From positions 17,422,001 through 17,486,000 of the forward strand of contig OZ024760.1 of the NCBI GenBank assembly GCA_964016885.1: a stretch of 64,000 bases of DNA. The letters run 5' to 3'. This document shows, in pieces, positions 20,923 to 64,000 of the stretch; the first letter of the stretch is position 1; each line of letters starts with the position of its first letter. Position numbers and translations under genes: made by a program. Below the pieces are notes generated by a model. The model did no database searches and was not told where the DNA came from. It saw nothing but the letters and a program-made list of their open reading frames with translations. The DNA is from Eledone cirrhosa. Lineage: Eukaryota.

Positions 20923-21847
20923 GCTCACAAACACGCATACTTACAAGAATATACATACACACTGACAAATTCACACACATATACACACACACATAGAAAC
21001 TCATAAATATACACATACATATATATACCCACATACATATATACACACATACATATATACACACATACATATGCACGCATAAAGAACCGAGTTAGTTTGT
21101 TGTTGTTGTTGGGTGGTGCTGTCGGTTTTGCCAACAACTTATGTGTTATTATTTTAGTTTTCACAACAGAGACGAGAGGAGTTGTGACGGTGTCTGGTCT
21201 CTGGTCATACCAGATCTCACCCAACGGACGGACATGGTTGGACACGGATGGAGCGACGAATTGACACGGACTAGCTGCTACTAATAAACCCATGGATACA
21301 AGTTCGAATCCGGCAGTGTCAATATATTTTTGTTAATCTTACAACTGTAAGTAAATATTTTAGTGATAGAAGCCAAACGGGTGAAGAAGGTATTATACAT
21401 ATCTTACCAACGGTTGGACGGACACGGGTGGACACGGATGAAACGACAAATGGACAGGGATTAGCTGCTATTGATAACTCATCGATACGAGTTCGAACCC
21501 AGCTGTTCAATCGGTAGTTTTCAATGTTGTTTTATTAATCTTATATTTATGATATTCAACAACGATTAAAGTCGTGTGTGAAGTGTAGAAAATGGTTTCA
21601 CATAACAAAACATTACACATAGTACTGCTGCTATTACAACAAACCAACCAGTAATTAACTGTGGTTAGAGGTTTGTTTCTGATTTGTCAACCTATATTCT
21701 GAGAACTGTTACCACCACAACCATTAACCATCTACTTACTACATCTTATTAATATTGTATGTCCGTAAGTATTCATATATTTTCATTGCGTGTTTTCGTG
21801 ACTGCGCAGCGAGGCAACTAACTGTTGCGTGCGACTTAGACACAAAA

Positions 21848-22355
21848 TAATTGTTTCTACTTTTGGTACAAGCCTAGCAATTACCCCAGTGTATTACTGG
21901 TGCTTTATTTTATCGACCCTGTAACGATGAAAGCCAAAACTAACCTCTGCGGGATTAGAACTCTAACCGTAAAATTCAATGATGATTATGGGTATACAAA
22001 ATAATTGTTTCTACTTTAGGCACAAGGTCAGCAATAACCACCAGTGTATTACTGGTACTTTATTTTATCAACCCTGTAAGGATGAAAGTCAAAGTTAACC
22101 GCGGCGGGATTTGAACTCAGACCGTAAAGTTCAACGATGATTAAGGGTATACTTGATAATGGATATATAATTGTTTCTACTATTGGCACAAGGCCAGCAA
22201 ATAACCCAGTACATTACTGGTACTTTATTTTATCGACCCCGTAAGGATGAAAGTCAAAGTTAACCTCGGCGGGATTTGAACTCAGATCGTAAAGGGCCGT
22301 AACTCTTTGCTTGCATAGCATGGCGTCCGACCCTCTACCGATACTGCCAATCCAA
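21848..22355 (-). mobile_element. Three tandem SINE copies
   Basis: ATAATTGTTTCTACT...GGCACAAGG...TTTATCGACCCCGTAAGGATGAAAG...GGGATTTGAACTC starts near 21849, 22001 and 22167. Confidence 0.85.
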
Positions 22356-40602: not shown

Positions 40603-40802
40603 NNNNNNNNNNNNNNNNNNNNNNNNNNNNNNNNNNNNNNNNNNNNNNNNNNNNNNNNNNNNNNNNNNNNNNNNNNNNNNNNNNNNNNNNNNNNNNNNNN
40701 NNNNNNNNNNNNNNNNNNNNNNNNNNNNNNNNNNNNNNNNNNNNNNNNNNNNNNNNNNNNNNNNNNNNNNNNNNNNNNNNNNNNNNNNNNNNNNNNNNNN
40801 NN
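40603..40802. other. Assembly gap (200 N)
   Basis: Run of N. Confidence 1.
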
Positions 40803-59501: not shown

Positions 59502-60391
59502 CTGGTAGAAAAGGAAAATAAATCATTATCACCATCACCACAACCATTGTCATCACATCATCACCATCACTACACCATTGTCATCATCATAACTACCACC
59601 AAATCTTTTCAAATGCGGAACCCTTTTTGGTTCAGAAACTTTTGGAGGAACCCCAAAGTCTAATACTGTTATATGGTCGTAATATAAATATAATCCTCTA
59701 CCGTTTTTCACGGGACCCTAGACACTTCTTTGTGGAAGCCACTTTATCATCATCAACATCATAATAAATAAATGAATAAATCTTTATAAAATTGTCAGCA
59801 GTTGAGAGGCTTACTTATTAGTTATTACATGACTTAAAACCAACCATAGGTATCTTGGAGGTTTTAATGATAAGGACCCCAGTCCTATCATGTTGTTGTT
59901 ACAGTTCACACATATATAGGTTTAACTGACCTACAAGGTTACATCTTACAGTAGGTTTCTCAGGTGTTTTAATGATGAGGGGGGGGGGGCAGTCCTATCG
60001 TGTTGTAGATCAGTTAAAACTATATAGGTGTGAGCTGTTAATAACAACAACATAAGACTTTCATTCTATCATTAGAGCATCTGAGAAACCTCTAGTGAGA
60101 TGTAGCCAATTAGGTCAGAGCTGTAACAACAAGGTTACATCTTACAGATTTCTCAGGTGTTTTAATGATAGGGCCCCCGATCCTATCATAAAAGACAACA
60201 GGAAATGAAGTGTCTTGCTTAGGAACAATGTGCTGTCTGGTCCAGAAATTGAATCCATGACAGTGTGATCCTGAATCAAAAACCCTAACTTCAGGGAAAG
60301 CTCTTTAAATCCCTAACTAACATGAGAATAAAGCAAAGAAGCTATCCTTGACTAACTAGAAAATATGGCAAAGATGTTATCCATGACTTAC

Positions 60392-60534
60392 CGGAGATTT
60401 CAGATCAGCAGGAAGGAGTTTCTCTCCAGAAATATGACCCTGGAATCTTTTACGAGCCTCTTCCAACACAGCTGCATCACCATAACGACCCATACGACAC
60501 AGTACCAGGTCCCTTAATAATGTTGTCAAGTGAT
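60392..60534 (-). CDS. NPEPPS: NPEPPS exon (143 nt)
   Basis: TTTCAG|(D)HLTTLLRDLVLCRMGRYGDAAVLEEARKRFQGHISGEKLLPADLKSP|GTAAGT, phase 1-0. Confidence 0.93.
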
Positions 60535-60637
60535 CTGAAATAAGGAACAATATTTTCAAACTTTAGAAACCCCTGGCCTTTGACTACAGTAGACAGAAAG
60601 ATCTTAAGTAAAGTGTTTAGAAACAATCGACACTAAC

Positions 60638-60857
60638 CCTCTTCCTTGCTGGCTTCCCAGCCGACCTTTCCAGCTATCTTCTTGAACAAGTTCCGTACAA
60701 ACACCTTGTACTGGTCATAGTACTCAGTGTACTGAAGCAGGAGAGCAATGTTTGCCAAGTTCTGTGCCAGGTCATTCCAGACTGTATAGTTGTCTTCATT
60801 CTTGTACGACTGAACAAACTTCAGTACTTCTACAGTGGACACCATACCAGCACGAGA
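60638..60857 (-). CDS. NPEPPS: NPEPPS exon (220 nt); upstream exons lie beyond the window
   Basis: TTTACAG|SRAGMVSTVEVLKFVQSYKNEDNYTVWNDL...GWEASKEE|GTTAGT, phase 0-1; ERAP1-like C-terminal domain. Confidence 0.93.
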
Positions 60858-61045
60858 CTGTAAACAGAGTACAACAAATATTGGAAGGATTTGTGTATGT
60901 ATGTCTGTGTGCATCTGTATGTTTGTGTATGCGTGTGTCTATGTCTGTGTGTGCATATGTGTGTGTTTGTATGCGTGTATATGTCTGTGTGAAACTACTA
61001 CAAATGTCTGGAAACACATCGATCAGTTGACAAGTACTGTTTGCT

Positions 61046-62623
61046 CACTGGTCTATCCAGAGAACACTGGTCTATCCAGTGAACACTGGTCTATCCAGAG
61101 AACACTGGTCTATCTAGTGAACACTGGTCTATCTAGTGAACACTGGTCTATCTAGTGAACACTGGTCTATCTAGTGAACACTGGTCTATCCAGAGAACAC
61201 TGGTCTATCTAGTGAACACTAGTCTATCCAGTAAACACTGACCTATCTAGTGAACACTGGTCTATCTAGTGAACACTAGTCTATCCAGAGAACACTGGTC
61301 TATCTAGTGAACACTAGTCTATCCAGAGAACACTGGTCTATCTAGTGAACACTGGTCTATCTAGTGAACACTAGTCTATCCAGTAAACACTGGTCTATCC
61401 AGAGAACACTGACCTATCCAGTAAACACTGGTCTATCTAGTGAACACTGGTCTATCCAGTAAACACTAGTCTATCCAGAGAACACTGGTCTATCCAGAGA
61501 ACACTGGTCTATCTAGTGAACACTGGTCTATCTAGTGAACACTGGTCTATCTAGTGAACACTAGTCTATCCAGTAAACACTGGTCTATCCAGAGAACACT
61601 GACCTATCCAGTAAACACTGGTCTATCTAGTGAACACTGGTCTATCCAGTAAACACTAGTCTATCCAGAGAACACTGGTCTATCTAGTGAACACTGGTCT
61701 ATCCAGTAAACACTGGTCTATCTAGTGAACACTGGTCTATCTAGTGAACACTAGTCTATCCAGTAAACACTGACCTATCTAGTGAACACTGACCTATCTA
61801 GTGAACACTGGTCTATCCAGTAAACACTGGTCTATCCAGAGAACACTGGTCTATCCAGAGAACACTGGTCTATCCAGAGAACACTGGTCTATCCAGAGAA
61901 CACTGACCTATCTAGTGAACACTGGTCTATCCAGTAAACACTGGTCTATCTAGAGAACACTGGTCTATCTAGTGAACACTGGTCTATCTAGTGAACACTG
62001 GTCTATCTAGTGAACACTAGTCTATCCAGTAAACACTGGTCTATCCAGTAAACACTGACCTATCCAGTAAACACTGGTCTATCTAGTGAACACTGGTCTA
62101 TCCAGAGAACACTGACCTATCCAGTAAACACTGACCTACTAGTGAACACTGGTCTATCCAGAGAACACTGACCTATCCAGTAAACACTGGTCTATCTAGT
62201 GAACACTAGTCTATCCAGAGAACACTGACCTATCCAGAGAACACTGACCTATCCAGTAAACACTGGTCTATCTAGTGAACACTAGTCTATCCAGAGAACA
62301 CTGACCTATCCAGTAAACACTGACCTATCCAGAGAACACTGACCTATCCAGTAAACACTGGTCTATCTAGTGAACACTAGTCTATCCAGTAAACACTGGT
62401 CTATCTAGTGAACACTAGTCTATCCAATAAACACTAGTCTATCTAGTGAACACTGGTCTATCCAGTGAACACTGGTCTATCCAGTGAACACTGGTCTATC
62501 CAGTGAACACTGGTCTATCCAGTGAACACTGGTCTATCTAGTGAACACTGGTCTATCTAGTGAACACTAGTCTATCTAGTGAACACTAGTCTATCTAGTG
62601 AACACTAGTCTATCTAGTGAACA
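61046..62623. repeat. 19-bp intronic minisatellite, about 83 copies
   Basis: Unit CACT(G/A)GTCTATC(C/T)AG(T/A)GAA; no spacers. Confidence 0.95.
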
Positions 62624-62825
62624 TTACTACTGGCCTAACCTATAAATATATCTCCAAACCAGTTAAGTGAAAATATCCAGTGACCATTTTTACATCTAAT
62701 TTAATCTGACTAATTCTCTTCTCATTACATCATTATTCCCACTTCCCATGCCCCCAAAATTGTTGTCTTTGTGCCTAAATCAGAAACAATTGTCATTATA
62801 CTCCTATATTTTTGTCAGTTTCCTC

Positions 62826-64000
62826 TGAGAAAGACATATCTAACTTACCAAGGCAAAGAGATCACACTGTAGGGCCCTTCCCCTGCCCCCATGAGAAAGA
62901 CATATCTAACTTACCAAAGCAAAGAGATCACTCTGTAGGGCCCTTCCCCTGCCCCCATGAGAAAGACATATCTAACTTACCAAAGCAAAGAGATCACTCT
63001 GTAGGGCCCTTCCCCTGCCCCCATGAGAAAGACATATCTAACTTACCAAAGCAAAGAGATCGCTCTGTAGGGCCCTTCCCCTGCCCCCATGAGAAAGACA
63101 TATCTAACTTACCAAAGCAAAGAGATCACTCTGTAGGGCCCTTCCCCTGCCCCCATGAGAAAGACATATCTAACTTACCAAGGCAAAGAGATCACTCTGT
63201 AGGGCCCTTCCCCTGCCCCCATGAGAAAGACATATCTAACTTACCAAAGCAAAGAGATCGCTCTGTAGGGCCCTTCCCCTGCCCCCATGAGAAAGACATA
63301 TCTAACTTACCAAAGCAAAGAGATCACTCTGTAGGGCCCTTCCCCTGCCCCCATGAGAAAGACATATCTAACTTACCAAAGCAAAGAGATCACTCTGTAG
63401 GGCCCTTCCCCTGCCCCCATGAGAAAGACATATCTAACTTACCAAGGCAAAGAGATCACTCTGTAGGGCCCTTCCCCTGCCCCCATGAGAAAGACATATC
63501 TAACTTACCAAAGCAAAGAGATCACTCTGTAGGGCCCTTCCCCTGCCCCCATGAGAAAGACATATCTAACTTACCAAAGCAAAGAGATCACTCTGTAGGG
63601 CCCTTCCCCTGCCCCCATGAGAAAGACATATCTAACTTACCAAGGCAAAGAGATCACTCTGTAGGGCCCTTCCCCTGCCCCCATGAGAAAGACATATCTA
63701 ACTTACCAAAGCAAAGAGATCACTCTGTAGGGCCCTTCCCCTGCCCCCATGAGAAAGACATATCTAACTTACCAAAGCAAAGAGATCACTCTGTAGGGCC
63801 CTCCCCCTGCCCCCATGAGAAAGACATATCTAACTTACCAAAGCAAAGAGATCACTCTGTAGGGCCCTTCCCCTGCCCCCATGAGAAAGACATATCTAAC
63901 TTACCAAAGCAAAGAGATCACTCTGTAGGGCCCTTCCTTGTCCCCATGAGAAAGACATATCTAACTTACCAAGGCAAAGAGATCACTCTGTAGGGCCCTT
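62826..64000 (-). repeat. 66-bp tandem array derived from an NPEPPS exon 3' end plus 5' splice site; 18 visible copies, continues past the window
   Basis: Minus-strand unit TGGGGGCAGGGGAAGGGCC-CTA CAG AGT GAT CTC TTT GCT TTG|GTAAGTTAGATATGTCTTTCTCA. Confidence 0.92.

Follow-up and report, generated by a model that had tools for sequence, protein, structure and literature searches.

A 66-bp minisatellite spanning an exon/intron boundary repeats a splice donor of the PSA/NPEPPS gene in the octopod Eledone cirrhosa

In the human genes F7, CBS, 6-16, lamin B2 and PDGF, minisatellites are known that begin with a unit lying across an exon/intron boundary (Borensztajn et al. 2006, PMC1557585). According to that paper, only the first donor is spliced in F7, lamin B2 and PDGF, two more are used in CBS and 6-16, and the choice of donor in F7 constructs was changed neither by the number of repeats nor by the G triplets. 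A catalogue of human repeats whose length tracks splicing, cited for that general point, indicates that length effects exist in general (PMC10078293).

Here, an array of this kind is described in the gene for puromycin-sensitive aminopeptidase (PSA/NPEPPS) of the octopod Eledone cirrhosa, a locus for which a search of the open-access literature found no paper. The window is the whole stretch of DNA that was analysed (64,000 nt, G000:C21:17422001-17486000); the sequence was also followed beyond its edge, to 182 kb read in total, and positions past 64000 are given as window-equivalents. The array and the coding sequence around it are as follows.

62826..64000 in the window and on to window-equivalent 64326, minus strand: 66-bp minisatellite, from donor-word positions and TRF
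window-equivalent 64434-64300 (G000:C21:17486300-17486434), minus strand: 135-nt open coding exon with a TTCCAG acceptor ahead of it, from homology and contiguity
60637..60857, minus strand: next coding exon, acceptor at 60858/60857, phase 0, from homology and contig X4
60392..60533, minus strand: the coding exon after that, beyond a 103-nt intron that is skipped in contig X4
56733..64000, minus strand: the part of the PSA/NPEPPS gene inside the window, from protein mapping

The host gene was recognized by mapping an Octopus sinensis protein, which aligned as 20 blocks from 82624 to 56733; the gene thus comprises 20 or more coding blocks, and its start lies past the window edge, near window-equivalent 82624. 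It carries the M1 aminopeptidase hallmarks (GAMEN and HELAH...E blocks), and its best matches are to PSA. The 135-nt exon matches residues 539-583 of PSA chain 9o5k_G (E 7.2e-11), a stretch that ends LGLQNDLFSL, and ERAP1_C at E 3.6e-08, which is under the whole-protein cut-off, as expected of a fragment. The exon starting at 60857 matches residues 585-652 of the same chain (E 1.9e-17) and is 92% identical to the O. sinensis protein and 90% identical to an Argonauta hians protein. Since the two exons match adjoining stretches of PSA, the junction into 60857 is in phase 0, as had been proposed in a preliminary description of the window. The assembly holds one PSA copy: in a stricter first pass, every strong match lay at this locus and the rest were distant M1 peptidases.

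Eighteen copies of the donor word lie on the minus strand inside the window, spaced by 66 nt with one spacing of 65, and five more past its edge bring the total to 23, a number that comes from the assembly alone. The earlier count of at least 18 was therefore exact for the window and short of the whole array, which TRF reports with a period of 66, 22.8 copies and 98% matches over 62826-64326. Copy 1 is the true end of the 135-nt exon, contiguous with the array, and the real exon expected beyond position 64000 was thus found in place. The locus is a tandem array of minisatellite-sized, near-identical units, the first of which lies over a real exon/intron boundary. Comparison of the end copies with the inner copies showed that a unit is composed of the exon's final 27 nt, the intron's first 23 nt and, in all but the final copy, a G-rich insert of 16 nt. 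The description of the repeat as an amplified exon/intron junction consequently holds for its origin and for 50 of the 66 nt per unit; the other 16 nt are the insert, found in neither flank. The same donor is present in 23 of 23 copies, identical from -3 to +8, and a search of the array for the canonical four-tract G-quadruplex motif found none.

This layout places the octopod PSA array in the known donor-reiterating class of F7 and CBS. The 37-bp VNTR of human F7 intron 7 is alike in its boundary-spanning first unit, its identical intronic donors, splicing at the most upstream one and its G runs, and unlike in its dimensions (37 bp in 5-9 copies with 4 exonic nt, versus 66 bp in 23 copies with 27); the octopod array further differs in its 16-nt foreign insert per unit and its mollusc host (PMC1557585). 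The 31-bp VNTR of human CBS intron 13, c.1444_1467+7(16_21), also has a unit consisting mostly of a coding exon end with its donor, in a comparable number of copies (16-21), and its unit name, unlike the octopod unit, shows no foreign insert (PMC2630376); the two further donors used in CBS (PMC1557585) have no counterpart in the octopod contig discussed below. Lamin B2 (100 bp in 10-15 copies), PDGF intron 4 (81 bp in 16-18 copies) and 6-16, all human, are likewise boundary-spanning and comparable in unit size and copy number; the authentic donor alone serves in lamin B2 and PDGF, as in the octopod contig, whereas 6-16 also splices at the two pseudo-donors closest to it (PMC1557585). Internal tandem repeats of human duplicated genes resemble the array in placing minisatellite-sized units at exon-intron boundaries and can create new introns or alternative forms, whereas octopod PSA is single-copy and showed no alternative form (PMC2812944).

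Seven sites vary among the 23 copies, four in the exon part, three in the insert and none in the 23-nt intron part. The exon variants are those previously reported, with AGC in two copies, GCC in five and TGT in the last, together with a further synonymous change, which lies beyond the window in copy 4. Their distribution is patterned, with one variant in copies 6, 11, 14, 18 and 23 and another in copies 1, 2 and 6. An array made by the assembly, or inflated by it over most of its length, would be compatible with a copy number known from that source; it is extremely improbable given copies that differ in a patterned way, one unit of 65 bp, unique and N-free flanks on both sides, and a local source for the insert. 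The variants also bear on constraint. Zero hits among the six donor bases are expected by chance at p=0.50, so within the array the donors are no more conserved than chance predicts; the absence of variable sites from the 23-nt intron part has p=0.04, calculated post hoc. Three of the four exon-part variants fall in third positions (p=0.11), and a synonymous bias is not significant.

The local source of the insert is a single short match close to the array.

62741..62756, minus strand: G-rich 16-mer, identical to the insert at 14 of 16 positions, 69 nt into the 3' flank

Across the 182 kb read, none of 2,400 other 150-nt bins reached a 14/16 match to the insert, and by sequence similarity this 16-mer is its likely template. 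It lies in a decayed copy of an interspersed repeat that is common here, over 20 partial copies being present across the 182 kb read; for that reason a copy elsewhere in the genome could also have been the source. In the founding event, a single local duplication of the 50-nt junction may have picked up the 16-nt G-rich piece from 69 nt downstream, either by a template switch or through a 135-bp duplication followed by loss of the middle 69 nt. The resulting 66-bp unit would then have multiplied through slippage or unequal exchange. Elsewhere in the window, 21842-22293 holds three tandem copies of a 155-bp segment of this interspersed repeat, the probable supplier of the insert.

The surroundings are rich in repeats, with tandem repeats making up 54% of the 182 kb read. 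Besides the 66-bp array, the PSA/NPEPPS gene holds two complex minisatellites.

61046..62623, no strand assigned: second, unrelated minisatellite in the same intron, TRF period 19, 83 copies
window-equivalent 77978-79232 (L012): 121-bp minisatellite in the first PSA/NPEPPS intron, 10 copies, 97% matches, touching no exon

The intron that begins at copy 1 is 3,442 nt long, of which the 66-bp array fills 1,474 and the 19-bp array 1,578, together about 89%. Upstream of the gene, at about window-equivalent 120300-182000 (L016-L022), a complex satellite of 25-28-bp units extends over more than 60 kb and continues past the DNA read. The window also contains an assembly gap of 200 N at 40603-40802.

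The use of the donors was considered from the sequence and from one transcript. Reading through donor 1 gives V-S-stop, and any donor after the first brings an in-frame stop upstream of several later junctions, both as the preliminary description had stated. An RNA with a stop upstream of later junctions is a substrate of nonsense-mediated decay (NMD). Amongst 23 sequencing runs found, none was recorded as RNA; four were compared with 60380-60885, and one (X4) gave a contig, while X1, X2 and X20 gave nothing, a result that carries no weight. This single contig of 3,248 nt (depth 121.5, with no other letters over 366 nt) is taken as spliced RNA, as it skips the 103-nt intron. In it, donor 1 is spliced to the acceptor at 60857, with neither insert nor microexon. 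At the acceptor the contig has 30 loose letters, which finish with GGGCTAGT and match donor 1 alone of the 23. The most upstream donor was thus used in the one contig seen, from a sample that is distinct from the best DNA-matching runs and may or may not carry the array; rare forms are lost from contigs, and NMD would thin out later-donor transcripts further.

Altogether, these observations make it very probable that the locus is a boundary-spanning minisatellite of 23 head-to-tail junction copies that is probably neutral to selection and whose first donor is the one used in the spliced contig. The repeat-prone setting, a known class with first-donor use and another exon-end array, found in an unrelated gene (described below), all favor this reading. 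Under it, exon definition would run from the acceptor to the closest good donor, as in human F7, leaving the later donors silent, and the remaining 22 would likely be spliced out with the intron. Any rare leak would run into a stop after two intronic codons, and NMD would probably remove the transcript. Weighing against it are the single contig from a single run, the intact state of all 23 donors, the invariant 23-nt intron part with its post hoc p value, the two additional donors that CBS and 6-16 each employ in human, and the fact that first-donor preference has been shown in mammalian cells, not in molluscs.

Some of these same points suit a variant in which donors 2 and 3 are used passively at a low rate, the stop-bearing transcripts being degraded at a small cost and with no regulatory role. 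Identity of all 23 donors from -3 to +8 and the precedent of CBS and 6-16, for which PMC1557585 gives two further donors each, argue for such a leak, and its minor forms would be hidden by contigs. The X4 junction is a single form at depth 121.5, which limits minor forms without excluding them, and we regard a leak of this kind as possible, if on balance rather unlikely.

Far less credit can be given to the proposal, made in the preliminary description, that the array acts as a bank of decoy U1 sites tuning productive versus NMD-targeted splicing by copy number, or provides an 18-nt SDLFAL microexon. That every later donor brings a stop ahead of several downstream junctions, that the donors are intact and that the intron part is invariant (on the post hoc p=0.04 given above) would agree with it. 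The X4 contig shows the donor-1 junction only, and its loose letters do not match the microexon form; conservation of the donor hexamer is no more than chance predicts (p=0.50); F7 splicing was unaffected by repeat number or loss of G triplets (PMC1557585); and the same arrangement occurs in an unrelated gene where the donors are decaying. A regulatory role of this sort is very doubtful, though later donors may be used at a low level.

The unrelated gene came from a scan of the genome for other repeats straddling such boundaries, as had been suggested for this locus, which yielded one further case.

G000:C1, about 776250-776990 (L099:3750-4486), plus strand: exon-end donor array, 17 copies of 38 bp

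The array follows a 108-nt open exon, whose final 17 nt recur with the donor in every unit; 7 of the 17 donors are changed. This exon, fourth in a collinear set of four blocks, shares 84-86% identity with an ADAMTS7-like protein of O. sinensis. Searches for three donor words set at repeat spacing gave hundreds to thousands of matches each, and arrays were taken from the first 100 matches listed per pattern; 35 were examined, leaving out a satellite on C2 and one array on C11. Only the ADAMTS-like array started at a homology-supported coding exon (1 of 32, three others of the 35 starting outside the DNA read), a lower bound, since exons that are untranslated or weakly conserved would escape notice. 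When 16 open frames lying upstream of 15 arrays were scanned against Pfam, none matched, the true ADAMTS-like exon included, which marks the scan as insensitive. A simple exon rule was set aside: it missed the ADAMTS-like exon and flagged four others, none with homology support. In 30 kinase loci taken as a base-rate sample, no complex minisatellite overlapped the match, a weak comparison given the many long single-exon matches.

A genome-wide enrichment of triple donors was also discarded as a signal. The 11,392 matches exceed the 4,508 of the reversed control, and 6,751 matches to a narrower pattern can explain the excess; all 100 of the matches listed for that pattern belong to one 60-bp satellite on C2. 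This satellite runs on the minus strand of G000:C2 from about 26.00 Mb, has a donor-like word in its unit and is very large, probably with thousands of copies.

On its own, the octopod array has little significance, as its class has already been described and dissected in human genes. It would matter more if leak to later donors grew with array length, so that a length-variable repeat set PSA dosage through NMD and repeat-rich octopod genomes held a panel of donor ladders, the ADAMTS-like case included, acting as cis-regulatory dials; we consider this a long shot. At this exon, gene models and read mapping can be led astray by arrays of this sort. With its source nearby, the 16-nt insert offers a record of the founding event of a minisatellite, and the locus as a whole provides a natural test of whether the preference for the first amongst identical donors holds in molluscs.
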